This document shows, piece by piece, positions 691-43,273 of a DNA stretch of 64,000 nucleotides (positions within the stretch are counted from its first letter, which is position 1; every line of letters starts with the position of its first letter). The notes beneath the pieces are model-generated. The model was given only the letters and a program-made list of their open reading frames with translations, had not been told where the DNA came from and did not search any database. The DNA is taken from NCBI GenBank assembly GCA_030698495.1, contig JAUYKA010000005.1:8404-72403 (forward strand), in the 5' to 3' direction. The stretch is from a bacterium (GTDB taxonomy: Bacteria; Patescibacteriota; Andersenbacteria; UBA10190). Made by a program: the position numbers and the translations under genes.

Positions 691-1206
691 TTAGCTCTCT
701 TCCTTTATTTTTTTCACAATGTCGCTCGTGGCCAATCCCGGGCGGCGCTTAACCGTATAACCTTGCGCCCCAACTTCTTCCATTACCGGCCACTCTATCC
801 ATGTTTCCGGTTCACCGTATTCCGAACCGTTTACATGCACCTGCGGCTTTATCAAGCGTATTAAGGTTTGCGCCACCTCATCGTAAAGCCGATCAACAAT
901 CACCACGTAATCCACACTCTCTAGCGCCGCCAGCATTGCCGCTCGCTCATCTTCAGGAATATACGGCCGGCTCTCTCCCTTGCCTTCCCGCACCGACTTA
1001 TCCGAATTCAAACCGATAAACAAAACATCACCCTGCCGCTTGGCCTCCTCCAGAAAATCCAAATGCCCCGCGTGCAGCAAATCAAAAGAGCCGTTAACAG
1101 TCACAATTTTCTTCCCCGAAACCCGCAACTCCTCCGCTCGTCTCCCTCCCTCCTCCAAGGAAAGGATTTTGTCGTATCGCCAATTATGTTTAGTTTTATC
1201 ATCCAT
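691..1206 (-). CDS. hldC: D-glycero-beta-D-manno-heptose 1-phosphate adenylyltransferase (cytidylyltransferase fold, RfaE domain II-like stand-alone protein)
   Basis: GSFDLLHAGH nucleotidyltransferase (H/T)xGH motif; size 171 aa; sits between gmhB and hldD. Confidence 0.75.
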   Translation of the reverse strand: MDDKTKHNWRYDKILSLEEGGRRAEELRVSGKKIVTVNGSFDLLHAGHLDFLEEAKRQGDVLFIGLNSDKSVREGKGESRPYIPEDERAAMLAALESVDYVVIVDRLYDEVAQTLIRLIKPQVHVNGSEYGEPETWIEWPVMEEVGAQGYTVKRRPGLATSDIVKKIKEES

Positions 1207-1278
1207 AAATTATTATTACATTCTCATAATGACACCAGTCTTACCTATCTTGCAATGATACACACAGTGTCCAGCACT

Positions 1279-1414
1279 CACACCGCGTGTCTTTTGTGAC
1301 CGTCTAAAAGCCTGTCAGCTCGGTTCCCCGCCTTTGGGCGGGGATGACAGGCTTTTAGTCGATAGCGACCGCCGCTGGAGCGGTCGCTATGTGTCACAAA
1401 AAACACGCGGCGTG
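1279..1414. repeat. GC-rich structured intergenic element, family E, copy 1 (between gmhB and hldC)
   Basis: Conserved core GACCGTCTNAAG...CCGCC-loop-GGCGG...TCGA...CCGCCGCTGG..GCGG inside an outer stem whose sequence is unique to this copy. Confidence 0.7.
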
Positions 1415-1451
1415 AAAAGTGCCGGACACTAGTGAACCCGCGAAAGATAAT

Positions 1452-1997
1452 TTACCTAATAGACAAGACCATCTTCACCGCTTCAAACAAAGAATCAACT
1501 ATTAAATCCGGCCTATCACTCAATTTATCCTCCTCCCAAAACCTGCTCGTAATTAAAGCTGTGTGCATTCCCAGCGCCTTGCCAAAACCTAAATCCGCCT
1601 CCTTATCTCCTATCATCCAACTATTCCCATAATCAATCGGCCCCAGCGCCGCTTCAACCTGCTTGGCCATGCCCGTTCGCGGTTTACGACAATCACATAT
1701 ATCTTCCCGCCCGTGCGGACAATAGGCGATATAATCCAGTTTTGCCCCTGATTTTGCCAGCTCTTCTTCCATATACTCGTGCAATTTCTTCATATCTTCT
1801 GCCGTGTACAACCCGGCCGCTATGCCCGACTGATTAGTAATCACCGCCAACTTAAAACCGGCGTCCCGCAGTGCTATCAACGCCTCCGGCGCCCGCTCGG
1901 TGAACCGCCAATCTTCTATTTTATAAGTGAATCCGTCATCAATATTTATCGTCCCATCCCGGTCCAGAAAAAATACCTTATGTCCCTTACCGCTCAT
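1452..1997 (-). CDS. gmhB: D,D-heptose 1,7-bisphosphate phosphatase (HAD family)
   Basis: FLDRDGTIN HAD motif I; CPHGREDICDCRKP zinc-binding motif typical of GmhB; 11-nt overlap with the upstream kinase gene. Confidence 0.8.
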   Translation of the reverse strand: MSGKGHKVFFLDRDGTINIDDGFTYKIEDWRFTERAPEALIALRDAGFKLAVITNQSGIAAGLYTAEDMKKLHEYMEEELAKSGAKLDYIAYCPHGREDICDCRKPRTGMAKQVEAALGPIDYGNSWMIGDKEADLGFGKALGMHTALITSRFWEEDKLSDRPDLIVDSLFEAVKMVLSIR

Positions 1998-3022: not shown

Positions 3023-3589
3023 TTATGCTTCCGGCGGTTCAAACATCTCACACATCAGGTGTATTGCGTGCAAATGCATCTCTTGTATTCTGGCACCCGT
3101 CTCACTTGGCGACACAATCGCGTAATCCGCCATATCCTTAAATTCACCTTTTCTGCCTGTCATCGCCACCACCGTCATTCCCCGTTTTCTCGCTTCCTCC
3201 GCCGCCAGTAAAATATTTTTCGAAGTACCCGACGTTGTCAGGCCGATAAACACATCGCCCTCCCCGCCTAAAGCCTGTACCTGGCGTTTAAAAACATCCT
3301 CGTACCCCCAATCGTTACCAATACAAGTTATCACCGCTCCATCAGCCGTCAGTGCAATTACCGGATAAGCCGGCCTCTCCTGCTTATATTTCCCCACCAT
3401 CTCGTCCGATAAATGCTGTGCCTCCGCCGCCGAACCGCCATTACCGGCCACCAACACTTTATTCCCCCGCTCAAAAACCTCCCGCAAATGTTCTCCCACT
3501 TCCTCCACCTGCCGGTGAAATTCCTCCACGTCTGCCGTCACCTCGTGCAGCTCTTGCGAATGTTTTTTAAATATCTCTACTGTTTTCAT
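3023..3589 (-). CDS. gmhA: Phosphoheptose isomerase (SIS domain)
   Basis: SIS domain motifs (VAGNGGSAAEAQH, TTSGTSKN). The likely start is MKTVEIFKK, with ATG at 3587-3589; the longer ORF-track start lies inside the upstream spacer. Confidence 0.8.
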   Translation of the reverse strand: MKTVEIFKKHSQELHEVTADVEEFHRQVEEVGEHLREVFERGNKVLVAGNGGSAAEAQHLSDEMVGKYKQERPAYPVIALTADGAVITCIGNDWGYEDVFKRQVQALGGEGDVFIGLTTSGTSKNILLAAEEARKRGMTVVAMTGRKGEFKDMADYAIVSPSETGARIQEMHLHAIHLMCEMFEPPEA

Positions 3590-3675
3590 ACTGTTATTAT
3601 TTAATGCTTTATAACTATGACACAAAACATACAAATACCTTACAACCTTCCCGGGCGGGTGGCGCCTGCAGGCGC

Positions 3676-3835
3676 TTAGTCACGGCTGCTTTTGTTTTTT
3701 GCGACCGTCTCAAGAACTGCCAGCCCGGTCCCCGCCTTGAGTTTATCGAAAGGCGGGGTGGCAGATCTTGAGCCGAGCGCAGTCCGCCGCCGGGGCGGAC
3801 AAGTACGTCGCAAAAAGCAAAAGCAGCTGTGACTA
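3676..3835. repeat. Family E element, copy 2 (between gmhA and rfbD)
   Basis: Same core architecture; the outer stem is AGTCACGGCTGCTTTTGTTTTTTGCGAC paired with its complement. Confidence 0.7.
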
Positions 3836-3875
3836 AAAATGCACCCGCCAAAGACCGCTCTCCAACACTAATCAC

Positions 3876-4697
3876 TTACCTCGTTTTAATGTACTCGTCA
3901 AGAGCCGTCTCCCACGGCCGCAACACCGGCCCCCTCGTATTATTCAATATACTATATTTCGGCCTCGCCGCGGGCAAAGGATATTCACTGCTGGCAATCG
4001 GCCTAACTATTACCTTCATCCCCGCCAACTCAAAAATCTTGACCGCAAAATCATACCAACTGGCACGGCCGCTGTTCACGGCATGATAAACCCCCGGCTC
4101 ATAACCGCCCGACACAACTTCCTTTGTCGCCCCGGCCAAATCCATCGTATACGTCGGACTGCCCCACTGATCATTAACCACCCCCAACTCTTTCTTCTCG
4201 CCGACCAAACGCAGCATCGTCTCCACAAAATTCTTACCATACGCACCGTAAAGCCACGCTGTGCGTAATAAATAATACTTTGGCGCTATTTCCCGCAAAG
4301 CCTTCTCTCCGGCCAACTTTGATTCTCCATACACATTCACTGCCGGACCAGGCTCGTCATCTTCGCCGTACCCCGCTTCCTGCTTACCATTAAAAACATA
4401 GTCCGTACTATAATGTACTAATATCGCGCCGCTTTCTTTGGCCGCCAATGCCAGATTTCTCACGCCCGTCTCGTTTATAGCAAAAGCCAAGTCGCGCTCT
4501 TTCTCCGCCCCGTCGACGTTCGTATAAGCTGCCGCGTTAATAATCAACTCCGGTGACAGCTCACTAATTTCCCGATTAACATCAGACTGTTTCGTAATGT
4601 CCAGTTTATCCTTATCCCCCACAACAGCTTCTGCCCAAACAGAGCGCAGCGCGTGCCCCAGCATACCGTTGCCGCCCACAATCAGCACCTTGGCCAT
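3876..4697 (-). CDS. rfbD: dTDP-4-dehydrorhamnose reductase
   Basis: N-terminal GGNGMLG Rossmann motif; YSTDYVF and YGESK catalytic motifs of RmlD. Confidence 0.8.
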   Translation of the reverse strand: MAKVLIVGGNGMLGHALRSVWAEAVVGDKDKLDITKQSDVNREISELSPELIINAAAYTNVDGAEKERDLAFAINETGVRNLALAAKESGAILVHYSTDYVFNGKQEAGYGEDDEPGPAVNVYGESKLAGEKALREIAPKYYLLRTAWLYGAYGKNFVETMLRLVGEKKELGVVNDQWGSPTYTMDLAGATKEVVSGGYEPGVYHAVNSGRASWYDFAVKIFELAGMKVIVRPIASSEYPLPAARPKYSILNNTRGPVLRPWETALDEYIKTR

Positions 4698-6264: not shown

Positions 6265-6612
6265 CTAAAATTTCGTTTGTTGCTCCACTAAAAAATCATC
6301 CAGCCACATCCTCGCCTCTTCGCCTTTTAATATCTCCTCCGCATTACTGCCTACCGCCGCGCCGGTCTTAGCCGGCAAAAGCGTATACGCGCCTTCCGAT
6401 AATAACAATACCCGCTTTTGCCGGCGACCAGTCAAAACATCGCCGCGTACCGCCGCCGCGATAATCGCGCCGACCAGCCATAAAACAAAACTCAACACCG
6501 GCACCGTATGCAAAATAACACTAATAAACAAACCGACCAAGGCGCCGCCCAAGACCCATAAAATAGTTACGATATTCTGTGTCGGCTTATCAGTAATCAT
6601 AAATAGCTCCAA
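6265..6612 (-). CDS. Hypothetical small membrane protein (2 TM)
   Basis: Hydrophobic ORF of 115 aa; no recognisable domain. Confidence 0.35.
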   Translation of the reverse strand: MELFMITDKPTQNIVTILWVLGGALVGLFISVILHTVPVLSFVLWLVGAIIAAAVRGDVLTGRRQKRVLLLSEGAYTLLPAKTGAAVGSNAEEILKGEEARMWLDDFLVEQQTKF

Positions 6613-6639: not shown

Positions 6640-6815
6640 AACCGCCATACCAGCGAGTACAGTAAATACAGCAAGTACAGTTTTTCTAACCCCCTCTATT
6701 CTAATCCTTAGGTTTAGAAAGACCTCTACAGCCTGTCTAACACTCTTTCTAAACCTAAGGTTTAGAATAATTAGAATACTTTTCTGTATTTACTGTCCTC
6801 GCTGTATTTACTAAA
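6640..6815 (-). terminator. 175-bp nested inverted repeat 3' of lepA (outer CAGTAAATACAG/CTGTATTTACTG, inner TTCTAA..TTAGGTTTAGAAAG/CTTTCTAAACCTAAGG..TTAGAA)
   Basis: Two nested inverted repeats; the CTGTATTTACT motif recurs at 37083-37141 and 58683-58730. Confidence 0.45.
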
Positions 6816-6822
6816 TTTATCC

Positions 6823-8640
6823 TCACGTTCTCTTTAATACCGCCAAATATGCCTGCGTTGGAATTTTCACTTTGCCTTGCTGCCCCATCCGTTTCTTTCC
6901 CTTCTTCTGTTTTTCCAGCAACTTTCTTTTGCGGGTCACATCCCCACCATACAAATATCCCGTCACATCCTTGCGCATTGCCGGTAATGTTTCCCGCGCA
7001 ATAATATTGCCGCCAATCGCCGCCTGAATCGGTATGGCAAACAACTGGCGCGGAATCACCTCTTTAAGCTTCTTCACCATGCGTCGTCCGATTGCTTCCG
7101 ACCTGGAACGAGCCACAATCACCGAGAGCGCCTCTACCGTCTCATGATTTACCATTACTGCCAGCTTTACCACGTCCGCGTCGCGCCATTCCGTCAATTC
7201 ATAGCTCATCGACCCATAACCCGCCGTGACCGACTTCAAATGATCGTATAAATCAACCACTAATTCCCGCAACGGCATTTCATACGTCAGCTGAACACGA
7301 TCGGCCTCCAAATAATGTTGGTTTTTTATTACCGCCTCCCGATCTTGCATAATCTCAAACACCGCCCCCATATACTTAACCGGCGTCAGCACGTCCACTG
7401 CGGCGTATCTCTCTTTTATTGATTCAATATTAGACGGATCAGGCCAACTAGCCGGAGTGTTGGCTTCTATTTCCTTCCCCCCACGCCCCATTATCTTGTA
7501 AGCGACACTGGGTGTGGTAATCACCAAATCCAGTTTATGCTCCCGATGCAGCCTCTCTTGCACAATATCCATGTGCAACATACCTAAAAATCCGCAGTGA
7601 AAACCTTGGCCCAGCGCGTCGCTCCTTTCCTGAACCACCGAAATACTGGAATCGCTAAGCAGTAACTCTCCGATGGCGTCGCGCAAAATCGGAAAATCAT
7701 CGCCTCGTTCCGGAAAAATTCCGGCGAACACTTTCGGCTGGGGAATACTGAAACCGAGCAAAGCCGTCAATTTGCCACCATCCTTAACCAGCGCGATCGT
7801 ATCTCCAACCCTCGCTTGCCGCACATCTTTCAACCCGGTAGCAATGTAGCCTATTTCCCCGGCCGACAACTCGGACTTTACCTGCCAATCGGGATTAAAA
7901 ATGCCAACCTCCACCGCGCGATCCGACGCTCCCGTTCCCAAAAAAACAATTTCATCACGCGCCTTTACTTTCCCCTCCACCACGCGCACATAAGCCACCA
8001 CTCCTTTATAATCATCGTAAACGGAATCAAAAATCAAAGCGCGCAGGGGACTATTAACGACTTGTTCAGCTGCCGGCACCCGCGACAATATTGCGTCCAG
8101 AACCTTCTCCACGCCTTCGCCCGTTTTTGCCGAAATCAACAAAATATCTTCCTCCCTGCCGCCCAAAAGACTTATTATTTCTTTCTTCGTTTTTTTAACA
8201 TCCGCCGCCGGCAAATCAACTTTATTGATCACCGGAATTATAACCAGATTCTGCTCCAATGCCAGATACAAGTTGGCAATTGTTTGCGCCTGCACTCCTT
8301 GCGTAGCATCCACCAGCAATATCGCTCCCTCCACCGCCTGTAGGCTTCGGCTGACCTCGTACTGAAAATCAACGTGCCCGGGCGTGTCGATTAAATTCAA
8401 AACACTATCACGCCTGTCCCCCATAGCCGTCACATCATGGGACGCGGCGGGGGGCCAGCTCATCCGCACCGGCTGCAATTTAATGGTGATGCCGCGCTCC
8501 CGCTCCAGCTCCATCGAGTCTAATAATTGCTCCTTCATGTGGCGTTTATCGACCGTTCCCGTCAACTCCAGCATCCGATCCGCCAAAGTGCTTTTACCGT
8601 GATCAATATGAGCGATAATACAAAAATTATATATATTCAT
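6823..8640 (-). CDS. lepA: Translation elongation factor 4 (LepA)
   Basis: AHIDHGKST G1 motif, DTPGH motif and the LepA-specific C-terminal domain; 605 aa. Confidence 0.9.
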   Translation of the reverse strand: MNIYNFCIIAHIDHGKSTLADRMLELTGTVDKRHMKEQLLDSMELERERGITIKLQPVRMSWPPAASHDVTAMGDRRDSVLNLIDTPGHVDFQYEVSRSLQAVEGAILLVDATQGVQAQTIANLYLALEQNLVIIPVINKVDLPAADVKKTKKEIISLLGGREEDILLISAKTGEGVEKVLDAILSRVPAAEQVVNSPLRALIFDSVYDDYKGVVAYVRVVEGKVKARDEIVFLGTGASDRAVEVGIFNPDWQVKSELSAGEIGYIATGLKDVRQARVGDTIALVKDGGKLTALLGFSIPQPKVFAGIFPERGDDFPILRDAIGELLLSDSSISVVQERSDALGQGFHCGFLGMLHMDIVQERLHREHKLDLVITTPSVAYKIMGRGGKEIEANTPASWPDPSNIESIKERYAAVDVLTPVKYMGAVFEIMQDREAVIKNQHYLEADRVQLTYEMPLRELVVDLYDHLKSVTAGYGSMSYELTEWRDADVVKLAVMVNHETVEALSVIVARSRSEAIGRRMVKKLKEVIPRQLFAIPIQAAIGGNIIARETLPAMRKDVTGYLYGGDVTRKRKLLEKQKKGKKRMGQQGKVKIPTQAYLAVLKRT

Positions 8641-9124
8641 AAGCCTTAGTATCGAGAATATAACACAAGACCGTATCAGCTGCCATAAATAAAATTAGGC
8701 CGCCGTTATCTGCCAAGTATCGCGATCCCCCCAGGAATCAATGCGACTCGACAAACAACGACGGCCAAAAGGGCCAAGATTCTCGCTTCGCCTTTTGACT
8801 TCACCGCGTGAAAACCGGACTGTCTCTTGGCATCCCTTTTACCTCCAACTTTAGGGTTTAGGGTGCACAGGCCAGGGGATCGCGGTACGGCTGTCGGGTG
8901 ACTTCCCCGACATTCAAACCGTTACCCGCGCGCCCGGGGGCCGCCGTCAGGAGGTCGTCGCGCAATAAGACCTTTTCTCGAGCTTCCCTCGCATACGCGC
9001 TCCTTCCTGCCAGGGCAACTAGATAGCCACCCGGCAAAGAGACAGAAAAAGAGAACAACTAACTACCCGTTTTATAGTACCTATTGACACACGAGTCAAT
9101 AGTCACATAAAAAATTAACGAGAA

Positions 9125-9230
9125 ACTCAAAATGAAAAACTCAAATTAACAAGATAAAACCAAAAACAGTTGCGGCAGTTTTGCCTTTTGCGTTGTTATT
9201 TTGAGTTTTTCGTTTTTAGTTTTTAGTTCT
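9125..9230 (-). terminator. Long AT-rich imperfect hairpin (AAAAC-repeat family) 3' of murJ
   Basis: Arms GAAAAACTCAAA...CAAAA and TTTTG...TTTGAGTTTTTC. Confidence 0.4.
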
Positions 9231-9232: not shown

Positions 9233-10849
9233 CTACTCCAACATCCCCCCAAACCTCGGCGTCTCCGTTCCCGCCTCTATCTTCGCCCGCCGCGGCAAAT
9301 ATTTCCGTATCGCCGCCAGCTCGTCGCACCTAAACAACAAACACATAGCCACATACGCCGCCACCCCGCCGCCGAAAGATACTAACAGCTGCAGCAATAC
9401 CCCCCAAAACCTGGTCATATCCACCATCGCCGCCACCGGATATTTTAGCGCCTGCAAAACCATTCCGGCCAGTACCGCCGCTACCGTTATCCTCGCCAAA
9501 CTAAACAGCACCTCGCGATCATTAAAACCGTTCAACTGCCAATGCAGCACGCCCAACAGCATCACTAAATTCAAAATCGCCGCCACCGAAAAAGCCAGCG
9601 CCAGCCCCTGCACGCCCATTCGCGGCGCCAACCATATTGCCAGCGCCACATTTACCACAATACTGATTAAAGAAACCGTCACCGGAATAATCGTGTTTTG
9701 CCTCACATAAAACGCTCGCGTCAACAACGGCACCGTCGCTTGCGCAAACAAACTGATCAGCAGCAACCCCAGTGTTTCGAAGGTTAGAATAGTATCTTCC
9801 CAGTCAAAAGCGCCGTCGCCAAACAGCACCCGAATCAACTGCGCGCGCAGCAAAAAGAAAAAGACCGCCACCGGCACCACTAGAAACAAAATATACCGAA
9901 AGGTTTTTGTCAGTGTATTCCTGAATTCTTTTTCCTGTCCTCGCGCTACTTGCTCCGCCAAGGTGGGAAAAGCCGCTTGGGCAAACGCCAAGCCGAATAC
10001 CCCTATCGGCAGACTCTGCACATTACTGGCCAAATGAAAAACCGAAATGGTTCCCGCCGCCAGCCCGGAACCGATTATCGTAACTAAAAACAAATTCACC
10101 TGTGTTCCGGCCAAACCGAATATACGCGGAATTATCATTCGCCGCAGTTTTTTTACATCAACGGAAGACCACTCCATTATCAGCCGCCAGCGCCAGCCGA
10201 CCGCGATCGCGCTCGGCAATTGCACCAACATATGTAGTGCTGCGCCCAGCACCACACCCCACCCCAGTCCGGATACTCCCATCATCGGCACCAGCCAAAC
10301 CACGCCGATAATTATACCGACGTTATAAAGAATCGGCGCCATCGCGTAAGCCACAAAACGCTTAAACGAATTCAGCACCCCGGAGAAAATAAAACTGATA
10401 CTCAATAATATCGGCTGCAGCGCCATCACTCGGGAAAGCATTATCGTCATTGCCAACTTGCCGCCGCTAAAACCCGGCGTTATCAAAGGCACAATCTTAT
10501 CGGCCAACATCACATATAAAATACTGAATATTATTACCACAATCAGGACTAAGTGAAGAACGGACAAGGAAAAATCAAACGCCTCTCTCTTTTTTTTATC
10601 TTTGCTATGAACCAGTTTCTCTGTGAACAAAGGAATAAACGCGGCCGACAAAGCTCCTACTACAACCAAATTAAAAATCAGGTCTGGTAAACGAAACGCC
10701 GCCACAAAAGCGTCAAACGTATCACCCGCGCCAAAGGTCGTGGTAAAAACCCTTTCTCTGATTAAACCCATGAAACGCGAACCTAAAGAGGCCGCTCCTA
10801 AAATCAGGGCCGCCGACACTACTCGACTGCTTACACCGTTTCTGGCCAT
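9233..10849 (-). CDS. murJ: Lipid II flippase MurJ/MviN family
   Basis: 538-aa polytopic membrane protein with the MurJ N-terminal signature (FMGLIRERVFTTTFGAGDTFDAF). Confidence 0.8.
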   Translation of the reverse strand: MARNGVSSRVVSAALILGAASLGSRFMGLIRERVFTTTFGAGDTFDAFVAAFRLPDLIFNLVVVGALSAAFIPLFTEKLVHSKDKKKREAFDFSLSVLHLVLIVVIIFSILYVMLADKIVPLITPGFSGGKLAMTIMLSRVMALQPILLSISFIFSGVLNSFKRFVAYAMAPILYNVGIIIGVVWLVPMMGVSGLGWGVVLGAALHMLVQLPSAIAVGWRWRLIMEWSSVDVKKLRRMIIPRIFGLAGTQVNLFLVTIIGSGLAAGTISVFHLASNVQSLPIGVFGLAFAQAAFPTLAEQVARGQEKEFRNTLTKTFRYILFLVVPVAVFFFLLRAQLIRVLFGDGAFDWEDTILTFETLGLLLISLFAQATVPLLTRAFYVRQNTIIPVTVSLISIVVNVALAIWLAPRMGVQGLALAFSVAAILNLVMLLGVLHWQLNGFNDREVLFSLARITVAAVLAGMVLQALKYPVAAMVDMTRFWGVLLQLLVSFGGGVAAYVAMCLLFRCDELAAIRKYLPRRAKIEAGTETPRFGGMLE

Positions 10850-17951: not shown

Positions 17952-17995
17952 CCAGATATATTAACGTAAGGTTGGCGACAACGCCAACCCCGCCA

Positions 17996-18110
17996 TAAAC
18001 TTAAAACTAAAAACTAAAAACTAAAAACTGCACCATAAAAAGAAAAAAGAACCGCGTAAAATCGTTCTTTTTCGTTTTTCACTTTACGTTTTGCGTTTTC
18101 TTATACCGCA
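17996..18110 (-). terminator. AAAAC-repeat hairpin family, 3' of the WbaP-like gene
   Basis: (AAAACT)x4 arm, central GC hairpin, GTTTTTCACTTTACGTTTTGCG arm. Confidence 0.4.
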
Positions 18111-19555: not shown

Positions 19556-19823
19556 TCACCTAAATTGTCAATACAATATGACACTGTCTTATATTGTAAT
19601 GCCGCTACCACCTAAACCGCAACGGTTATTTAACGTGCCTATCACGGCGGGTGACGCGCTGGGGGGTCCCCCGCCGAGCGCCTGCACCCGCCTAAATTTT
19701 GCCGCAGCAAAATATTAGGCGGGGAAGCCGTCGGGCGGGGGCTCGAGCGCGGCAGGACCCGCCGGAGATGAACAATATTAGCCCCAGTCGCCTAAACGTC
19801 GTTTGACAAACCCCACATTTCGT

Positions 19824-19837: not shown

Positions 19838-20350
19838 GAAGACAGGTGAATGGCCGCTCTTTGTTCAAAGTTCGAGGCAACCCCTTAGGGGTTTACCCTG
19901 AGCTTGTCGAAGGGAGGAAAGTCCGGACACCTTATTGATCTTTTTCAATAAACGGGTGGCAGATAACGTCTGCCCGGAGCAATCCGAGGGACCGATACAA
20001 AATGGATAGATAGACACACGTGTATATCTATTTAATCGGCCAAGAGTGCAACAGAAACATACCGCTTTCACCCGCCGAAGCTTTACGCGAAGGCGGGCTA
20101 GTCCACTTCTTGTGGAGAGTAAGGTTGAAATCGTGAGGCCCGCCTTCGCGCGGGATACCCCTCGCTTCGGCGAGGCAAAGTAAGAGCTCACGCGGCCGCG
20201 CGGCAACGCGCGGACGGGGCAAGCCCCACCCGGTGCAACCTCAAGCAATTCCGCCTTAAAACGGAATAGGTAGAGGGCAAGAGGCGTACGGCGACGTGCG
20301 TCCCAGATAGATGGCCATTCCAGACAGAATCCGGCTTACAGCCTGTCTTC
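19838..20350 (+). ncRNA. rnpB: RNase P RNA (bacterial type A-like), about 513 nt with insertions
   Basis: P4 strands GGAGGAAAGTCCGGACACC (5') and ACAGAATCCGGCTTAC (3'). P1 pairs GAAGACAGG with CCTGTCTTC. Conserved blocks AGTGCAACAGAAAC and GGTAAGGTTGAAA are present. The region has no ORF and is GC-rich. Confidence 0.8.
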
Positions 20351-20409
20351 AAAAAAACCGCCCAGATTTTTGTCTGAGCTGTTTTTTTATGCCAACCAAA
20401 TAGATAATT

Positions 20410-21837: not shown

Positions 21838-21952
21838 ATATCAATCGGCGTTGAGATTAAACAACCTGAACTAATTTAATCATTATAACCGGTTTATAAC
21901 AAGGTGAAATACGAATAAAGACTATTCCAACACGGACATTGAATTTTCCCTG

Positions 21953-21982
21953 AAACGGCTCAACCGTACGGATGAGCCGTTT
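21953..21982 (-). terminator. Hairpin AAACGGCTCAACCGTACGGATGAGCCGTTT abutting the stop codon of the wHTH gene
   Basis: Same conserved stem as the hairpins at 25506-25535 and 63174-63208. Confidence 0.5.
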
Positions 21983-22354
21983 CTATATCACCTCGTACCG
22001 CACTCCCCGTCCGGTATTGCCTTCCTGTTTGAGCTTCCCCCGGAGTTCCAGCTCTTCCAAATATCTGGTGGCCGTAGCATCGGATACTCCCGTTGCCTTT
22101 TGCACCTCATCGTTACTCACGCCGCCGTGCTCGCGCGCGTACGCCATAACCTGCGCCAAAATATTTTCTTTGCGCTCCTGATCCTGCCGCACACTGTCCG
22201 CCAGCTCCGCCGGCACCGCTCCGCCACCACCGGAGCCCGAATCGTCCGCGCCACTACCAACCAAACCCAAACCGCGCCGCCTCAAAAACCAAGCACCCGC
22301 GCCCGCTACAATAAACCCAACTATAAATCCCCAAATAAATCCATTCATAAACAA
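21983..22354 (-). CDS. Membrane-anchored winged-helix DNA-binding protein (hypothetical regulator)
   Basis: N-terminal TM helix, Gly/Ser linker, C-terminal wHTH (VSNDEVQKATGVSDATATRYLEELE). Confidence 0.45.
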   Translation of the reverse strand: MFMNGFIWGFIVGFIVAGAGAWFLRRRGLGLVGSGADDSGSGGGGAVPAELADSVRQDQERKENILAQVMAYAREHGGVSNDEVQKATGVSDATATRYLEELELRGKLKQEGNTGRGVRYEVI

Positions 22355-23077: not shown

Positions 23078-23854
23078 CTATTTAAACCTCTCAAAGTACT
23101 TGTCAATTTCTCCTCTTAACTCAATGCCAACTCTTTCAAAACAATCTAATAGGTTCTTATAAGCATTTTTACCACCTAGAAAATCCCAAAATTCATCAGC
23201 AACCTTAAGCTCATTGGGTAAATCCAACATTCCTCTCATGGTCCAACGATTATAAGCCTGCGGTTCATATGGATTATATGGAATAGCAATATAAGTATGT
23301 ATGGATGCCTTCGGTCTTTCTACTAATATTACAGCAACCCATTCTAGTAGTGTGCGCTTGAATTCCTTAAAACCACCTGCATTTGGTTTCGCTGTTTTTA
23401 TATCAAAAAGATAGTAGTCGTCATTACCAGATTCAACCATTAGGTCTACTCTCGTTGGTTTAACATCTACTATTTTACCTTTTTGGCAAACTTTTCTTAT
23501 ACGCTCAATTTCCTTTTGTTTATCGGGTGAAACACTCGCAGTAGTCAGCCCGTCGATAATTTTCTGGATTTCAGTTTGAGCTTCACTGCTTATCTGATGC
23601 CCCACAATCACTTGTGACTCAGCCTTTTTGAAGTTTTTTTGAGCCAAAGCTAAACCAACTGGTTCAAAAATACTTGTTCCGAAATTTGTATTTAATGAAT
23701 GAATAAAAGAGTATAGAGCTAATCTATCCTTACCAAGTAATCTAGTATGGAATGGCATAACCGCCGGCTCTGGTTTGTAGTTCTGAAACTTGTTTCTAAG
23801 ACTAGTCTTTAAAACCTCCTCGACTTCCTTAATTTGTTTATTTGATATAGACAT
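23078..23854 (-). CDS. Putative type II restriction endonuclease (TdeIII-like family, tentative)
   Basis: 258-aa protein whose start lies 1 nt from the stop of the DNA methyltransferase gene. Low-GC region. Family assignment is from memory of RE_TdeIII-like motifs, not from a search. Confidence 0.45.
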   Translation of the reverse strand: MSISNKQIKEVEEVLKTSLRNKFQNYKPEPAVMPFHTRLLGKDRLALYSFIHSLNTNFGTSIFEPVGLALAQKNFKKAESQVIVGHQISSEAQTEIQKIIDGLTTASVSPDKQKEIERIRKVCQKGKIVDVKPTRVDLMVESGNDDYYLFDIKTAKPNAGGFKEFKRTLLEWVAVILVERPKASIHTYIAIPYNPYEPQAYNRWTMRGMLDLPNELKVADEFWDFLGGKNAYKNLLDCFERVGIELRGEIDKYFERFK

Positions 23855-23855
23855 A

Positions 23856-25442
23856 CTAAATTTGCTTGAGATGAAAAATTATCTCTGAATATGGGTTTCT
23901 GTCACGCTCTGTTCTATTTAAAACCGGCCGCTTAAATCTATTAACTATTTCCATACCCGCTTTTTCTGCAATAGAAGGATATAAGTCATATTTATCATTT
24001 GCAACCAGGAAAACATTGCGGTCGTTTGCCAAATACTTTTTGCAGTTGTTTAAAACAAAAGCAATACCTTCAACGTATGACATTCTAGCTTCCGCACCTT
24101 GTCCTCTATATAAGGGGCCAATTTCATATTCGTCCCTGCGCTCAAAGCCAAACAAATCATAAGCATAGGCATGCTGCTCATGATAATCAATCTGACCAAC
24201 ATAAGGCGGCGAAGTAAAAATACCAGCAATTTTCTTCTTCTGCAAAATTCCATACAGTGTTTTATTTCTCTTTTTCACTTCCTTAAATATATCAACTTGT
24301 CTCGAATCTGCCGGAAGAATAGCATAGTGACTACCTGTTTTTAGATTGTCATATGTTTTGAGTCGATAGACAGTATCAGTTGCGTAACGATCAAACCAGG
24401 TTTTTATAGAAAACAATGGCTTACAAATTTTCTTATGCTTCCAACAATAATAAGTGGCCAGTTGCGGTTCTTTTAGTGTCGCTAAATCCGAGTGGGTCGT
24501 AGCACGACACGACCTAATGGTCCTGCTTAAAATCACTGCTAATATCTTTTTGTTTTTTATATCCGTTACTTTCTTAACCAAATCAAAAGCATAATCAATC
24601 TCTTTTCTAACTCCGTTAATATACCACCTATCAAGAAATGTATTTGTTCCTTTTTGCTTTAACTCAATACTATACTTCTTAATTTGACGCTTATAAACAC
24701 TCAAAAATTCTTTTTCTTTTTCCTCTGCATACTGTTTCTCATTAATCTGTCCCCTGTTTACCTTGTATTTATACTCAGGGCTTGGAAAATACTTATTATT
24801 AAATACAGCCAACTCATTTAGTAGCTCATTTTCAAAAGTGGACATCATACTATCATTTTCATATCCAGCTATTAAGGTTTTAATCTTATCAACATCCTTA
24901 TCTAAAAGGTTAAAATCATAATCCAGCAGCTTAGTCTCCGTAACCATACAGTTAAAGTGCGATATATCTACACCAATCGCATGAATACCCATTTCGTTAG
25001 CCTGAACTAATGCTGTTCCCGAACCGGAAAACGGGTCAAGAACCACGTCTCCTTTTTTAAAATAAACATCCTTTTTGAAATCATCAGTATGGCCATCTAA
25101 AAAATATTCAACCAACTGCGGAATAAACTTACCTTTGTACGGATGAAGTCGATGAACATGTTTAGTCGTGTCTTTTTCACGAAGATGATCAAAAGACAAT
25201 GACCAATTCAAATCGTTGCCCAAACGTTTTTTATACACTAACTCCCGCTTCCCACGAAATGATTTATAGTAGCGCTCAAGATCAGTAACGCTGACATATA
25301 CACCACTTTCGTTAACCCTTTTCTTTACTTTTCCGTACTGAATTAAGTAAGAAATATTAGACTCGCTTATATCTCTTTCTAAAAAATCACTAGCCCATCG
25401 ACTAGCTTCCATAAGAGTTAATAATTTCGTGTTGCCATTCAT
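23856..25442 (-). CDS. DNA methyltransferase (alpha-class amino-MTase; SPPY motif suggests N4-cytosine or N6-adenine)
   Basis: Motif I DPFSGSGT and motif IV TSPPY, separated by about 290 aa (alpha-class order). Confidence 0.8.
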   Translation of the reverse strand: MNGNTKLLTLMEASRWASDFLERDISESNISYLIQYGKVKKRVNESGVYVSVTDLERYYKSFRGKRELVYKKRLGNDLNWSLSFDHLREKDTTKHVHRLHPYKGKFIPQLVEYFLDGHTDDFKKDVYFKKGDVVLDPFSGSGTALVQANEMGIHAIGVDISHFNCMVTETKLLDYDFNLLDKDVDKIKTLIAGYENDSMMSTFENELLNELAVFNNKYFPSPEYKYKVNRGQINEKQYAEEKEKEFLSVYKRQIKKYSIELKQKGTNTFLDRWYINGVRKEIDYAFDLVKKVTDIKNKKILAVILSRTIRSCRATTHSDLATLKEPQLATYYCWKHKKICKPLFSIKTWFDRYATDTVYRLKTYDNLKTGSHYAILPADSRQVDIFKEVKKRNKTLYGILQKKKIAGIFTSPPYVGQIDYHEQHAYAYDLFGFERRDEYEIGPLYRGQGAEARMSYVEGIAFVLNNCKKYLANDRNVFLVANDKYDLYPSIAEKAGMEIVNRFKRPVLNRTERDRNPYSEIIFHLKQI

Positions 25443-25505
25443 GATGTCTTTCCTAATATATCATTCCCCATACAAAAATCAAAAACCCCGTCCCCAGCCA
25501 ACAAT

Positions 25506-25535
25506 AAACGGCTCAAGCGGACGCTTGAGCCGTTT
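25506..25535 (-). terminator. Hairpin AAACGGCTCAAGCGGACGCTTGAGCCGTTT downstream of Fic
   Basis: 10-bp GC stem plus flanking A/T runs; conserved-stem family (see findings). Confidence 0.5.
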
Positions 25536-25544
25536 ATTATAAGT

Positions 25545-26435
25545 CTATTGTTTGTAACTAAACCCTTCCCCTATCTTCCACACACCCTTCTCCCGAAAAG
25601 CGGGAATAGACTGCCGCCGCGCCGCATTAGTTATCGCCGACGCCGAAAGATTATTTTTCTTAATATATTCAGACAAACTGACAATGTTCTCTCCTTTTAA
25701 ATAAGTCACCCGTTTGTACAGGGATTCAATCAACATCAAAGCTAATATCTTTTCCATTGTTTTGGTATTCTTTTTCTCCCGATAGTCATCAAACGCCCGA
25801 TAATAATTGGTTTTCTCTTTATTGCGTACAATTAGACGGGGAAATCCCAATCGCAAGAGTTGAAAATTAACTATAACCCGCCCAATGCGTCCGTTACCAT
25901 CATTAAACGGGTGAATACTTTCAAAATCCAAATGCCACTTGGCGATTTTATCTAAGAAATACTTATCCAATTCACTGGAGTACTCCAACATAATTTCATC
26001 TATCAAACGCTCCACGTGCTCCGGCGGAGGCGCTACATGAGTTCCTACCCGAACATATTCACCTGCCTTGCGCCAACGCCCGGCAATTGCATCATCAATT
26101 CCACCTATCAGCATCTTGTGCAAAAGCAAAATCAATTCTTTGGAAACCTCTTCTGTTATCGCCTTGCCTCGCTTGTAATCAACAACCTGAGCCAAATTTT
26201 TTGCCTCGAAAACCTCCCGCAACGATACGTCCCGTGCCAACTCCTGTTCCAGCAAAATCTTCTCCGTTTCTTTCAAAGTGAGAGTTGAATTTTCTATCGC
26301 ATTTGAGTTATAGACACTTTCAGGAATTTCCGCTTCATCAATCATGCTTAAGAGCGACTCTTTACCCTTTTTTAAGGCATCAAAATCAGCCTTTAGCGTC
26401 TTAATTTGCTCCCTAAATTGTTTGGTTGTTGCCAT
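25545..26435 (-). CDS. Fic/Doc family protein (AMPylase)
   Basis: Canonical Fic motif HPFNDGNGRIGR. Confidence 0.85.
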   Translation of the reverse strand: MATTKQFREQIKTLKADFDALKKGKESLLSMIDEAEIPESVYNSNAIENSTLTLKETEKILLEQELARDVSLREVFEAKNLAQVVDYKRGKAITEEVSKELILLLHKMLIGGIDDAIAGRWRKAGEYVRVGTHVAPPPEHVERLIDEIMLEYSSELDKYFLDKIAKWHLDFESIHPFNDGNGRIGRVIVNFQLLRLGFPRLIVRNKEKTNYYRAFDDYREKKNTKTMEKILALMLIESLYKRVTYLKGENIVSLSEYIKKNNLSASAITNAARRQSIPAFREKGVWKIGEGFSYKQ

Positions 26436-26564
26436 AATTACATTATATCAAATTCACGCGTTTTTGTCAAAACCACGTGAATTGCACCCAATAACAGCCC
26501 TTCATTCACGCGTTTTTCTACAAATTCCCCCCCTGTCCACACTCGGTGTGGACAGGGAAATCAT

Positions 26565-27275
26565 CTATTTCCTCATCAGCCCATTTTCCCGAAAGCTGAA
26601 CAGTTGCGTTTTGCTGACTACCACATGATCTAGTAATCCTATTCCCATCAATTTTCCCGCTTCAGTTATTTGTTTTGTCACCGCCAAATCCGCTTCGCTC
26701 GGATTGGGATCGCCGGAAGGATGATTGTGGCAAACAGCGATGCTGGCGGCGTGCCGTCTTATTGCCGCGTCAAATGTTTCGCGCGGATGCACTAAATTAG
26801 CGTTAAGCGTCCCGACACCAATCAAGTCCACCCCTAACACCCGGTTACGATTATCAAACGAGGCTACGAAAAAATGTTCTTTCTGCCAGTCGCCAATAAA
26901 TGGTTTTACCAGCCGGGCGATGTCCTCCGGTGCCGCCACCGCTTTTGACTTATTTCTCTTTACCTCACTATCAGTTTCCTCCCGCACCACCCGCCGGGCA
27001 ATTTCCAGACATGCTTTTAATTGCAGTGCTTTCGCCTGCCCCAATCCCGGCACTTTCTGTAACTCCTCAACTGAAGCCGATACTACACCTGCCAACGATC
27101 CAAAACAACTCAACAAATTCTGCGCTATCTGCATTACCGATAACCCCGCCGTCCCGCGACCAAGCACGACGGCAATCAACTCCTGTGCCGAAACACTGCC
27201 AGCGCCGTATTTTACCAAACGCTCCCGCGGCCTCTCCTCCACAGGCATGTCCCGCACCGTGAAATTTTGCTTCAT
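26565..27275 (-). CDS. radC: RadC-like JAB/MPN domain protein
   Basis: HNHPSGDPNPSEAD JAMM motif; N-terminal HhH; start MKQNFTVRDMPVEERPRERL (ATG at 27273-27275). Confidence 0.8.
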   Translation of the reverse strand: MKQNFTVRDMPVEERPRERLVKYGAGSVSAQELIAVVLGRGTAGLSVMQIAQNLLSCFGSLAGVVSASVEELQKVPGLGQAKALQLKACLEIARRVVREETDSEVKRNKSKAVAAPEDIARLVKPFIGDWQKEHFFVASFDNRNRVLGVDLIGVGTLNANLVHPRETFDAAIRRHAASIAVCHNHPSGDPNPSEADLAVTKQITEAGKLMGIGLLDHVVVSKTQLFSFRENGLMRK

Positions 27276-27319
27276 GATTTTATCTACTGAATTTCCCCGC
27301 CCTAAGCCGCCATGATTAA

Positions 27320-27610
27320 TTAGTAAATATTTACCCCCCCACCAAGAACAAAGAGTACCCATACCACCAGAAGAAATCCAACCCAGGCTACACTACCATA
27401 CAAAGCAAATAGATTTATCAAAAAAAATCTACTGGGCTTTTCCAAGTTATTAAGTCGTATTAAATAAAAAAACTCTAATAAAGCAACAGCCACTGGAATA
27501 ATAAACGCAAATATTAAATCATTCTCATTAAAAAAAACAAGGATCGTTAGTGCAACACTAACCACAGCTAAAATTACCGCGACTGCTAAATGTATTTTTA
27601 TCATTCTCAT
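27320..27610 (-). CDS. Hypothetical small membrane protein
   Basis: 96 aa with three hydrophobic helices. Confidence 0.35.
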   Translation of the reverse strand: MRMIKIHLAVAVILAVVSVALTILVFFNENDLIFAFIIPVAVALLEFFYLIRLNNLEKPSRFFLINLFALYGSVAWVGFLLVVWVLFVLGGGVNIY

Positions 27611-27763
27611 AAAACTCTTTATATTTTACAACGTTTCTCTAATTGCGGCTATCATTTCCCGTAACGGTAACGCTTTCTCCTGATCAACCCTACCCCCGCG
27701 TATTGACCCGGCAAAATATATATACATATTTTTATTCTATCCCACCCATACAAAAAACAATAA

Positions 27764-27782
27764 ATCCAACACCCGATGTTAA
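27764..27782 (+). repeat. Direct repeat ATCCAACACCCGATGTTAA, copy 1
   Basis: Identical 19-mer at 29022-29040; extended similarity of about 30 bp. Confidence 0.7.
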
Positions 27783-27879
27783 TATTACACCGTAACACTA
27801 CTGTGCATTAACCACACTAGCCGTTTGGGTATCGTGTTTTTAGTGCTATGATTAAAGAAATTATCATTAATTTTATTCT

Positions 27880-28986
27880 ATGGAAAATATGGGGATGGAC
27901 AATCAAATAAATGAACAGCAGGAAGGTCAGTTTAATAACCAGCAAGCGGGTCAGCCTACTGAAGTTATTAACGAAATAAAGCCTAGAAAAAATTATACAT
28001 TGGCTATTGTTCTATTGGTTCTTGTTATATTTATAATGGTTTTTGCGGGAGGAGTTTTCGCTTATCTGTATTTTTCTTCCAAGACTAATAATATTGTGGC
28101 TGATGTGCCGATGGATACGAGCGCGCCCGTAGAATCTGCTACGCCAAGTCCCTCTGGTGAGTTGTCTGTAGTGTTTACACCTCCATATCCGGTTGTGTTT
28201 TCGGAAAGGGACAATACGCCAAACTTTGGCGGCGCGGGAAAATTTTCCCTAACTGGAGTTACGATAGGTGATTATGAGGTTACGGAAAGTAATAAGATGT
28301 CTTTCTGGGACGGATTTAAATACACATACGACGTGGGGCAGAAAATTAATTCCGTTGCATTAGAATTTAAAATTAACGTCACTGAGGGAGGCCAGCTTCC
28401 TCAAAGTATTAGAATGATTTCCGTGGATGAAGCGGGGGGTGAAGACAGGACACCACCGATAAACAGAGATTATTTGTATGATGGCCATAAGCCGATGAAT
28501 GATTTTGCGACGACTGACTCTACTGTCGAGAATGCACAGGTTGTTTTTGCAGTGCCGGAAGGCGCGACTTCATTTATGTTTACGAGCGGGGGAAGTTCAG
28601 AAATTAAGTTTAGTGTGGCCGTAAACAACGGACAGATATCAGTTAACCAGGCAAATCTTGGTGAAACCAGTACATTCACGAAATATATGACTGGAAATAT
28701 TGGGATTGATGTGGTTGAAGTGATGATTAATAGAGAAGGAGGAGTGCTGGCAGGAAATTTTGTGTCGGATAAAAAAGTCGGGATTATAAAGGGGACAGTG
28801 GATAGTGCCGGAAATTATTTTATGCAGTTAACGTTTCTAGAAGATAATCAGGAGTACGGAGTAATGACGGGCGCTCTTACGCTAGTGGATGATATAACTG
28901 GTAATTGGCGGGCGGCGGGTTCACTTGAGGATGTTCCGTTCACTTTGACCAAGGCGCAAATACGAATACCAGCCTTTGCTCAGTAG
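27880..28986 (+). CDS. Hypothetical membrane-anchored extracellular protein (the only substantial plus-strand CDS apart from rpmB)
   Basis: Q/N-rich N-terminus, single TM helix (LAIVLLVLVIFIMVFAGGVFAYLYF), and a 300-aa beta-rich ectodomain. Confidence 0.6.
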   Translation: MENMGMDNQINEQQEGQFNNQQAGQPTEVINEIKPRKNYTLAIVLLVLVIFIMVFAGGVFAYLYFSSKTNNIVADVPMDTSAPVESATPSPSGELSVVFTPPYPVVFSERDNTPNFGGAGKFSLTGVTIGDYEVTESNKMSFWDGFKYTYDVGQKINSVALEFKINVTEGGQLPQSIRMISVDEAGGEDRTPPINRDYLYDGHKPMNDFATTDSTVENAQVVFAVPEGATSFMFTSGGSSEIKFSVAVNNGQISVNQANLGETSTFTKYMTGNIGIDVVEVMINREGGVLAGNFVSDKKVGIIKGTVDSAGNYFMQLTFLEDNQEYGVMTGALTLVDDITGNWRAAGSLEDVPFTLTKAQIRIPAFAQ

Positions 28987-29021
28987 AAGAGATAAAAAAA
29001 TTTGTAAGGAAAAATAAGCCA

Positions 29022-29040
29022 ATCCAACACCCGATGTTAA
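29022..29040 (+). repeat. Direct repeat ATCCAACACCCGATGTTAA, copy 2
   Basis: See copy 1. Confidence 0.7.
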
Positions 29041-29176
29041 CATCGCAAATCGCGTGAATTTTAGTGAAAAACGGGTCTCATTCACGCGTTTTTCCTGATT
29101 TTTCCTACTTCACATACTCCACTGAACCACCCTTAATCTTCTTGTTTTTCAAGCAATCAACTGCCATAGGCACCAT

Positions 29177-29533
29177 CTATGACAAACCTTCAATACCACC
29201 GTCCGGCAAATCATCCGCCTCAAACCACTCTATTTCTTCATCCGTAGTAGTAGAAAAGTCGTTGGTATCCCCTTTATAAACAATGGCGTATAAATCTACC
29301 CGCCAACCTTTTGCTTTTAGCTTCCCGAAATATTTCCAGTCTTTCTTTTTGGTTTTCACGCCGGCTTCTTCTTTTACCTCCCTGACAATACAGTCACTGC
29401 TTTCCTCACCGCGCTCAATCCTGCCACCAATTCCATTCAGCTTGCCCGCTTGCCAGTCTGGCCTATTTTTATGCATCAATAAAACCTTTAAAAGATCATG
29501 GCTAAAAATAAAACCGAGAGTATAAGCTTTCAT
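29177..29533 (-). CDS. NUDIX hydrolase
   Basis: Nudix box GIGGRIERGEESSDCIVREVKEEAGV. Confidence 0.75.
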   Translation of the reverse strand: MKAYTLGFIFSHDLLKVLLMHKNRPDWQAGKLNGIGGRIERGEESSDCIVREVKEEAGVKTKKKDWKYFGKLKAKGWRVDLYAIVYKGDTNDFSTTTDEEIEWFEADDLPDGGIEGLS

Positions 29534-29653
29534 ACTCTAACTATATCAGAACCTGACACTCCTATCTGATCCGATCCAGTGCCTCGTTCACCATTTTGTC
29601 CGCTATCTTGTTTTTCTCCCTGGCCACACGATATGGTTTATTTCCGGAGTTAG

Positions 29654-29947
29654 TTATTCCTTAAACTTGAATGAGCGCTTGTTAGCTTCTTGCAGGATTT
29701 TTAATGTTGCCTGCACAGACAAATTGTCGCTTGGTAACAGCACCAGACGGTCGCCTAATTCATCGGCAAGAGGACTTAAAAATTCATCAGTCCACGACGG
29801 CGACAGGGTCAGCACCCCGGAAAAATCTATTTCCAAAACATCATCCCGTGGTAAATCACGTAAGGTAGTCCGAAACGCTTTAAGGGCCTCACTTCCCAAC
29901 TCCCGGGTAATTAAAGTGGTTCCGAATTTTTCCAACATCAATTTCAT
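29654..29947 (-). CDS. STAS-like domain protein (DUF4325-like; anti-sigma-factor-antagonist fold)
   Basis: 97 aa; secondary-structure pattern and size are consistent with the STAS/DUF4325 family (assignment from memory). Sits immediately downstream of a GHKL ATPase. Confidence 0.45.
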   Translation of the reverse strand: MKLMLEKFGTTLITRELGSEALKAFRTTLRDLPRDDVLEIDFSGVLTLSPSWTDEFLSPLADELGDRLVLLPSDNLSVQATLKILQEANKRSFKFKE

Positions 29948-29970
29948 AAATTTATATATTATCTTATTGC

Positions 29971-38152: not shown

Positions 38153-38202
38153 TGGCTTATTGTATCATTTTTAACCTCTCTTGTCTCTCGCAAAAGCGGG
38201 CA

Positions 38203-39278: not shown

Positions 39279-39328
39279 TTATCAATTTACAATTTTCATT
39301 GAAGCATCAATGATTCAATTTCTAAACA

Positions 39329-43270: not shown

Positions 43271-43273
43271 ACT

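Follow-up and report, generated by a model that had tools for sequence, protein, structure and literature searches.

Long hairpins with a conserved three-way junction core in operon spacers of Candidatus Andersenbacteria: a tentative family of duplicating palindromic insertion elements

Four long hairpins in the gene spacers of a 64-kb stretch of DNA (hereafter the window, meaning the whole stretch that was analyzed) raised the question of what kind of element keeps its shape while much of its sequence changes, and whether such an element acts in the transcripts of the operons in which it lies, acts in the DNA, or is an insertion that multiplies. The window encodes an adenylate kinase (Adk) that agreed at every residue with one from a Candidatus Andersenbacteria MAG (CPR), and the next Adk proteins were ca. 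72% identical. The first-pass annotation had placed four copies on the plus strand, each between named co-directional genes, and sequence, covariance models, and Pfam assignments all agreed with this (n = 4, c1 to c4). The locations held; the extents had been drawn too short, as c1 ran from about 1263 to 1434 rather than from 1279 to 1414, and c2 from 3654 to 3849. The copies and their neighbors were as follows.

c1: ca. 1263-1434, plus strand, full hairpin with core at 1298-1395 (folds and covariance models), in a 245-nt spacer between a HAD phosphatase (1452-1997, minus strand) and a cytidylyltransferase (691-1206, minus strand) by Pfam; 107 bits with model R1 and 103.5 bits with model R2.
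c2: 3654-3849, plus strand, full hairpin with core at 3703-3809 (folds and covariance model), taking up the greater part of the 241-nt spacer that separates RmlD (3876-4697, minus strand) from a SIS-domain isomerase (3023-3634, minus strand).
c3: 38202-38372, plus strand, full hairpin with core at 38229-38345 and an extended P3, in a 238-nt spacer between class II FBA (38391-39278, minus strand) and a PfkB kinase (37142-38152, minus strand).
c4: 44207-44372, plus strand, full hairpin with core at 44242-44337, in a 265-nt spacer between adk (44382-45041, minus strand) and map (43274-44116, minus strand).

The core motif GACCGTCTNAAG, allowing at most one mismatch, occurred in the 64-kb window at 1298, 3703, 38229, and 44242 only. 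A repeat search of the window independently recovered the same four copies (as two repeat families), and two covariance models, searched unfiltered against all 64 kb, returned exactly c1 to c4, at 103-123 bits, with the rest at the level of noise. The minimum free energy (MFE) was -102.3 kcal/mol for c2 (z -10.7) and -128.3 kcal/mol for c3 (z -14.5), and in both cases none of 200 shuffles was as low. Nearly all genes of the window were on the minus strand, and c1 to c4 were antisense to the genes that flank them. A spurious open reading frame (ORF) at 3615-3875 on the minus strand overlay c2.

Each copy was a single long hairpin of ca. 150-200 nt in which an outer stem, P0, enclosed an asymmetric three-way junction core of ca. 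100-110 nt. Read 5' to 3' on the plus strand, the core began with GRC, paired to a 3' GYC as the closing pair of P0, and continued with CG, a pyrimidine-pyrimidine mismatch conserved at the foot of P1, and helix P1 itself (12-14 bp). A 7-nt bulge, present on the 5' side only (GCYYGGT in the window copies, GCNYGGT over seven copies, including the three from related genomes listed below), was followed by P3, a hairpin of variable length with the form YCCCGCC...GGCGGGR, then by the return strand of P1 and a YCG pairing back to the CG. The core word earlier given as TCGA was found to be YCGA, in the context GTCGA in c1 and c4 and GCCGA in c2 and c3. A short linker with an initial A preceded P4, a hairpin with the loop CGCYGGR, and a linker of 3-6 nt on its 3' side led to the closing GYC. 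The parts of c1 illustrate this order.

GAC 1298-1300 with GTC 1393-1395, plus strand: core closing of c1, from the alignment to the model.
1301-1302 with 1360-1361: CG/CG pair at the P1 foot, next to the T1303·T1359 mismatch.
1304-1317 with 1345-1358 (arm 1304-1358), plus strand: P1.
1318-1324, plus strand: bulge, GCTCGGT.
1325-1344, plus strand: P3 hairpin, TCCCCGCC-TTTG-GGCGGGGA.
1364-1388, plus strand: P4 hairpin, AGCGACCGC-CGCTGGA-GCGGTCGCT.

The bulge and the base of P3 were conserved in 7/7 copies, the bulge reading GCTCGGT once, GCCCGGT twice, GCCTGGT once, GCTTGGT twice, and GCATGGT (GATGGT-type) once. The P4 loop was likewise conserved in all seven, as CGCTGGA, CGCCGGG, or CGCTGGG, on a stem that covaried (six of its seven pairs changed on both sides) and that was rich in GC in c1 to c4 and in AT in r2 and r3. 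P1 had turned over to the extent that CTCAAGGCTTGCCG in c4 corresponded to TCTTTGGCCTTTTCG in r1, and it was half degenerate in r2. The outer arms were near-perfect within a copy, with 16/16 positions paired in r2, 14/14 in r3, and 29/30 in c3; those of c4 were 38 nt long and 84% complementary, and the left arm of c2 was interrupted by a small additional hairpin (3662-3675). Between copies the arms were unalignable, though the window cores were 61-71% identical. To call the arms completely different, as had been done, went too far near the junction, where 8-10 bp were similar in c1 and c2 (CTTTTGTGAC / TTTTTGCGAC), and short words recurred in the outer arms of c1, c2, and c4 (ACTCAC/AGTCACGGC). 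A pseudoknot between the 5' GACCG and CGGTC of the bulge was rejected, as in c3 a change from A to G in GAC was matched by one from T to C in the 3' GTC, which supported the closing pair of P0 and not the pseudoknot. Base pairing of the bulge with the P4 loop was rejected as well, the variable positions being without covariation over the seven copies.

Standard pairs filled 92% of the pair cells in the 7-copy alignment, compared with 66% in column shuffles and ca. 43% in slid registers; fitting the alignment to the model favors the structure, yet the margin over the slid controls was large and r3 was model-independent. Changes on both sides were found in 35 of the 40 modeled pairs over the seven copies, and the covariation score was 0.783 versus 0.258, with none of 500 shuffles reaching 0.783. 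The original observation that structure was conserved while sequence diverged was upheld, and the pair statistics exceeded both kinds of control. The turnover of the stems, with the bulge and P4 loop fixed, indicated a constraint on shape and on two unpaired motifs.

The first-pass annotation had read this covariation as pointing to a functional RNA, and on this point our results differed. In an RNA under selection, G·U usually outnumbers A·C by far. The 1x1 helix mismatches comprised 4 G·U in the element sense, 5 A·C (equal to G·U in the mRNA sense), and 12 others, beside 388 Watson-Crick pairs, so that the G·U argument drew on nine informative mismatches. The predicted share of G·U was 2.8% in the element sense (11), 4.7% in the mRNA sense (19), and 7.3% in the RNase P RNA of the same genome, and the strand favored by MFE alternated from copy to copy. 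The equal frequency of G·U and A·C indicated that neither strand bore an RNA signature, and covariation alone does not make the element an RNA. The arms suggested a different origin for the pairing: being near-perfect within a copy yet unalignable between copies, they pointed to local making or homogenization, as helices that co-evolve slowly should leave more intermediates, and this pattern is explained no less well by local or homogenized inverted repeats than by selection on an RNA. The structure-specific protein recognition site that the same annotation had offered as an alternative is still plausible.

A search of related genomes, compared through the adk neighborhoods of ten related lineages, yielded further copies with compensatory changes.

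r1: lineage L134, 41 nt upstream of ruvX, antisense to the operon; 47.8 bits.
r2: lineage L135, adk/map spacer, antisense to the operon.
r3: lineage L142, adk/map spacer, antisense to the operon; 36.1 bits, E 7.5e-7.

The copy r3 was found by the second model, which had no r3 in its training set, and r1 was not downstream of a co-directional gene. The window copies were 61-71% identical among themselves and 34-57% identical to r1, r2, and r3, and this clustering by genome indicated duplication within a lineage. In a neighbor-joining tree of Adk, a single protein giving low resolution, the carriers (the window genome, L134, L135, and L142) fell into two clades with non-carriers interleaved; among the non-carriers were L122, L124, L127, L133, L138, and L140. 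The adk/map junction was occupied in three genomes of the two clades (window, L135, and L142). The nearest relatives, L122 (a 698-kb contig) and L127, kept the order secY-adk-map-ruvX...tpi-fba-pfkB-gap, with synteny undisturbed on both sides of the copies. At the adk/map junction, 265 nt long in the window, L122 had 4 nt and the genes of L127 overlapped; the fba/pfkB junction, 238 nt in the window, was 47 nt in L122, 77 nt in L127, and 28 nt in L138. Models R1 and R2 found no element in the same 20-kb region of L122 and L127. These short spacers, free of the element, indicated that the c3 and c4 spacers of the window were gains in its own lineage. Mobile insertion had been dismissed too quickly at first pass, given the empty junctions of the relatives, the patchy occurrence, and the clustering by genome.

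Several features lay beside the copies of the related genomes. A spurious gene-caller ORF over r1 matched itself alone in a protein-database search. On the minus strand of L142, next to r3, a second hairpin at 10646-10724 (apex CCTCGCC-CGCT-GGCGAGG) held the P4 loop word CGCTGG and an arm, TCTCAAGACC, matching P1 of c2 at 9/10 positions; perhaps it is a tandem copy that has degenerated. In L134 (11605-12982) and L135 (11748-13768), map and ruvX were separated by a cassette of opposite-strand hypothetical genes, and the equivalent position was also so occupied in L138, L140, and L142, with the window, L122, and L127 lacking it. The copy r1 sat at the edge of the L134 cassette, beside a sigma-70-like TTGACA-17-TAAGAT and a small hydrophobic ORF.

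The copies were not an assembly artifact, as c3 and c4 were present at 100% identity in an independent Logan assembly (L132) and r2 was seen in three separate JGI samples. Two Logan contigs of the same species, L130 and L131, broke inside c1, at window positions 1367 and 1291, which fits the difficulty that inverted repeats pose for de Bruijn assemblers. Hairpin elements of this kind will be under-represented, or found at contig ends, in metagenome assemblies.

The placement of the copies was uniform. All seven were antisense to the flanking operon and six lay between co-directional genes. Read in the mRNA sense, the hairpin started 8-25 nt past a stop codon in five copies (9-25 nt in the four window copies) and ca. 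86 nt past it in r3, and the window hairpins ended 20-90 nt before the next start codon, with the Shine-Dalgarno sequence outside the hairpin. The GC skew of the plus strand (-0.21 to -0.33) indicated that transcription and replication were co-directional across the window; since both run in the same direction, orientation cannot separate an RNA reading from a DNA reading. The flanking genes had no common theme, comprising sugar-nucleotide genes, glycolysis genes, adk/map, and ruvX.

The family is real and apparently undescribed. Rfam 15, searched over the whole window at gathering thresholds, returned RNase P only, so that the Rfam comparison suggested at first pass gave no family match; a permissive Rfam search with c1, c3, c4, r1, and r2 gave generic miRNA-type hairpins that scored no more than 35 bits where the cut-offs were 50-200; no family came close to its threshold or recurred throughout. 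These models covered the twister, twister-sister, hatchet, pistol, HDV-like, and hammerhead ribozymes along with HEARO, riboswitches, and sRNAs, and hammerhead, HDV, and twister cores were also absent on reading. There was no blastn match to phage and plasmid records, a pattern scan of a viral collection gave 0 matches, and nothing relevant was found in the literature on CPR spacer hairpins. A pattern scan of a collection with one genome per species, the source genome not among them, gave a single match in a Verrucomicrobiota MAG, which the model did not confirm and which was taken as chance; with a loose pattern, a metagenome scan gave 120 matches in high-GC contigs, none model-confirmed. Chi-like, CCWGG, and TdeIII (GGNCC) sites in the conserved motifs were inconsistent across copies, and TIGR-Tas arrays were rejected, being tandem arrays and not dispersed hairpins. 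No intrinsic terminator was found at the hairpin bases on either strand, the matches inside the element being sub-hairpins only, and no consistent promoter-like signals flanked the copies. As to mobile elements, a classical MITE was rejected because the terminal inverted repeats were not sequence-conserved between copies. At the hairpin bases of c1 to c4, r1, and r2 there was no direct repeat or common dinucleotide that would mark a target-site duplication, and no conserved termini or flanking motif were seen. The proteins scanned in the 64-kb window included no transposase, RAYT/Y1, or candidate partner gene.

The empty junctions in relatives, the patchy set of carriers, and the clustering of copies by genome are the behavior of a duplicating insertion element. 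We tentatively favored, at a little under an even chance, the explanation that the element is a new, structure-defined, duplicating palindromic insertion element of Candidatus Andersenbacteria that is recognized in the form of a folded single strand. Its reader would be a structure-specific protein that requires the bulge and the P4 loop; the strand could be either lagging-strand DNA serving as template or the transcript of the operon, both of which have the same sense. Recognition of this kind would explain why paired helices are free, unpaired motifs are frozen, and copies point in one direction, and movement would go through a single-strand intermediate. Copies would insert into, or persist only in, spacers just past stop codons, leaving the next ribosome-binding site free, and their position inside operons means that they would be co-transcribed, like ERIC, Correia, and REP sequences. 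For the outer arms, the most likely origin is local formation or homogenization of inverted repeats at the DNA level, for example by template switching in quasi-palindromes, and not slow co-evolution of RNA helices. The presence of several other long spacer-hairpin families in the window (below) suggested that this genome tolerates or generates palindromic insertions generally. Against the insertion reading stood the absence of a transposase, RAYT/Y1, or partner gene in the window, and of a target-site duplication, conserved termini, or flanking motif; moreover, the copies were far more diverged than a typical active MITE family, the occupation of adk/map in three genomes could mean retention and hence function, and frozen unpaired motifs with covarying helices are a functional-RNA pattern too.

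These last points led to the explanation that ranked second, which we regard as a serious rival, though less likely than not: a structured operon RNA in the mRNA sense (minus strand), in which P0 would be an RNase III-type stalk punctuating the polycistronic mRNA. Such a stalk would uncouple the stabilities of cistrons and/or release the core of ca. 110 nt as a stable RNA, and the bulge and P4 loop might then be protein-binding or tertiary-contact sites. In silico, P0 (19-38 bp, with 0-13% mismatches) had the near-perfect duplex of ca. 20 bp looked for in RNase III substrates, a near-perfect duplex of at least 20 bp being their hallmark. Covariation in every helix together with conserved unpaired motifs across four genomes, the same orientation to transcription in 7/7 copies, and the placement of 6/7 between co-directional genes, mostly just past a stop codon and in the window with the Shine-Dalgarno sequence left outside, would all be expected of an operon RNA, as would the occupation of adk/map in three genomes and the slight excess of G·U in the mRNA sense (19) over the element sense (11). 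However, G·U among mismatches was not above A·C (5 vs 4) and the G·U share was below that of RNase P RNA; the nearest relatives lacked the element and had tight or overlapping genes at the same junctions; r1 was not downstream of a co-directional gene; P1 was half degenerate in r2; and the genes that would be served shared no theme. More specifically, and less probably still, the core could be a new CPR/Andersenbacteria small structured RNA or ribozyme-like module, encoded several times within housekeeping operons and excised from their transcripts by way of the variable P0 stalk, in which case its functional sites would be the GCNYGGU-side bulge (ACCRNGC in the mRNA) and the CGCYGGR loop (YCCRGCG in the mRNA).

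That the element is a host site in DNA, folded as a single strand or cruciform, appeared improbable. It would be a fork-oriented priming or primosome-assembly, recombination, or nucleoid- or topoisomerase-binding site, in kind like plasmid single-strand origins or BIME/REP gyrase sites. The uniform orientation coincided with the direction of replication from GC skew, the pairing was Watson-Crick-symmetric with no strand-specific wobble, and the P4 loop motif was conserved on a variable stem, which is also the layout of single-strand origins and HUH-enzyme sites. Close relatives nevertheless lacked the element in the same 20-kb region, which made an essential chromosomal function unlikely, and no partner protein was found in the window, nor any sign of recombination at the copies, where flanking synteny was undisturbed. 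A small RNA gene on the element-sense (plus) strand, antisense to the operons, is very improbable: all copies were on the plus strand, as was the only other RNA gene of the window (RNase P RNA), but no consistent plus-strand promoter- or terminator-like signals flanked them, the would-be promoter region (outer arms and flanks) differed in every copy, and the G·U share was lowest on the plus strand, at 2.8%.

Other structured spacers and features of the window are listed here as observations in their own right.

6651-6804: nested near-perfect palindrome (outer arms 24 nt, 92% complementary; inner arms 26 nt, 96%) in the 210-nt spacer that follows lepA (6823-8640, minus strand) and precedes an unannotated ORF (6265-6612).
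8641-9100: ca. 450 nt, GC-rich and strongly structured, between lepA and murJ.
9117-9228, 17995-18107, 43159-43297, 45042-45163: family of AT-rich long hairpins with arms of ca. 50 nt, AAAAACT / AGTTTTT-like.
19640-19770: GC-rich hairpin of ca. 130 nt immediately upstream of rnpB.
19838-20354, plus strand: bacterial class A RNase P RNA (170.6 bits), on the strand that almost none of the protein genes use; a spurious ORF on the minus strand (19865-20248) overlaps it.
21946-21985, 25499-25538, 63168-63207: three similar hairpins, AAACGGCTCAAGCG-loop-CGCTTGAGCCGTTT, each flanked on both sides by runs of A and T.
23078-30690: region of lower GC (0.42).
39261-39319, 41788-41942, 46466-46605, 48980-49022, 52523-52584, 58163-58221, 60818-60946, 61414-61446: runs of GAAAATTG / CAATTTTC, often hairpins.
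50727-50868, 53125-53233: two copies, 93-98% identical, of a GC-rich repeat of 83-100 nt in the ribosomal-protein cluster.

The RNase P RNA was 517 nt long against a model of 367 positions and held several large insertions. The apex of the hairpin upstream of it, CCCGCC-TAAATTTTGC-CGCA-GCAAAATATTA-GGCGGG, resembled P3 of c3, and the element models gave it 10-13 bits; it is a different element or a very degenerate relative. The AT-rich hairpins lay in operon spacers that included secY/adk and map/ruvX, where the spacers of L122 were 0-1 nt. The GAAAATTG/CAATTTTC runs stood before many genes and could be a promoter or binding-site array; the GAAAATTG motif was found in the secY/adk spacer of L135 as well (9850-10000), which made it a second spacer family shared between lineages. 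L122 was without the AT-rich hairpin, the GAAAATTG repeat, and the 6651-6804 palindrome spacers. The repeat at 50727 and 53125 held a hairpin, CCCTCCG...CGGAGGG, and had a local 33-nt tandem duplication at 50777/50810. The AAACGGCTCAAGCG-loop-CGCTTGAGCCGTTT hairpins resemble a common terminator placed at gene ends, which may work in both directions. In 8641-9100 there was no ORF of at least 70 aa, no Rfam match at E<=0.1, and no tmRNA by ARAGORN, and this stretch may be an unrecognized RNA gene. The region 23078-30690, which carried a TdeIII-type restriction endonuclease adjoining an N6/N4 DNA methylase, together with Fic, RadC, and a MerR-type regulator, looks like an acquired island; its ORF at 27880-28986 (368 aa, no Pfam or NCBIfam match) was one of very few long plus-strand ORFs.

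Genomes in the CPR/Patescibacteria are small and densely packed, and knowledge of their non-coding elements is scant. The lineage studied here put hairpins of 150-200 nt into junctions that are translationally coupled in its relatives, among them junctions within the ribosomal-protein/secY-adk-map operon. Should the element be mobile, it would be a transposition substrate recognized by shape, with a layout opposite to that of MITEs and REPINs, and would point to an enzyme working on single strands; if it is an RNA, it would be a new multi-copy class of structured RNA in an uncultivated phylum. Seven copies and 35 covarying pairs make a model that could be used to search all CPR genomes.

In kind, the element resembles REPIN, ERIC, and Correia sequences with the layout reversed, an asymmetric core being conserved and the arms free. 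Mobile hairpins with frequent compensatory changes are known from REPINs (PMC3116915). Like the element, REPINs are non-coding, multi-copy, and extragenic, form one long hairpin as single-stranded DNA or mRNA, and are probably recognized in folded single-stranded form. The REPIN/REP-RAYT architecture was nevertheless rejected: REPINs have conserved ends (the REP 16-mers, with a 5' GTAG-type motif) and a variable center, whereas the element has a conserved center and variable ends; they occur as near-identical copies, hundreds per genome, in contrast to copies that are 61-71% identical; and they are symmetric doublets served by a RAYT Y1 transposase, whereas the element is an asymmetric three-way junction and no RAYT was seen in the window. 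An IS200/IS605-derived PATE would have a subterminal hairpin at either end and lie 3' of a fixed tetra- or pentanucleotide; in the element, P3 and P4 were similar CCGCC...GGCGG hairpins on one strand, here internal, and the flanks shared no motif. ERIC/IRU and Correia sequences are imperfect palindromes of 100-170 nt in transcribed operon spacers whose orientation matters at the RNA level, and Correia hairpins are RNase III substrates. The element shares with them the palindromic form and the position in operon-internal spacers, but not sequence, as judged from the plasmid, phage, and Rfam searches, and it has neither the conserved 26-bp terminal inverted repeats nor the TA duplication of Correia.

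Integron attC sites are recognized by structure, with variable Watson-Crick arms, extrahelical bases that set strand choice, and uniform orientation. Variable arms, conserved extrahelical bases, and uniform orientation between co-directional genes were all found in the element. The attC sites differ in their R''/R' core sites (RYYYAAC/GTTRRRY), their cassettes, and their variable center, which the element lacks, and an attC identity was rejected because there was no GTTRRRY/RYYYAAC at the arm ends, the neighbors were syntenic housekeeping genes, and no integrase was found. Lastly, T7-type RNase III hairpins and rRNA processing stalks, like the element, are intercistronic duplexes in which sequence is free and pairing is kept, and in all of them the duplex could release the part that it encloses. 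Those hairpins and stalks enclose either nothing or a known RNA, whereas the element encloses a conserved three-way junction of 100 nt.
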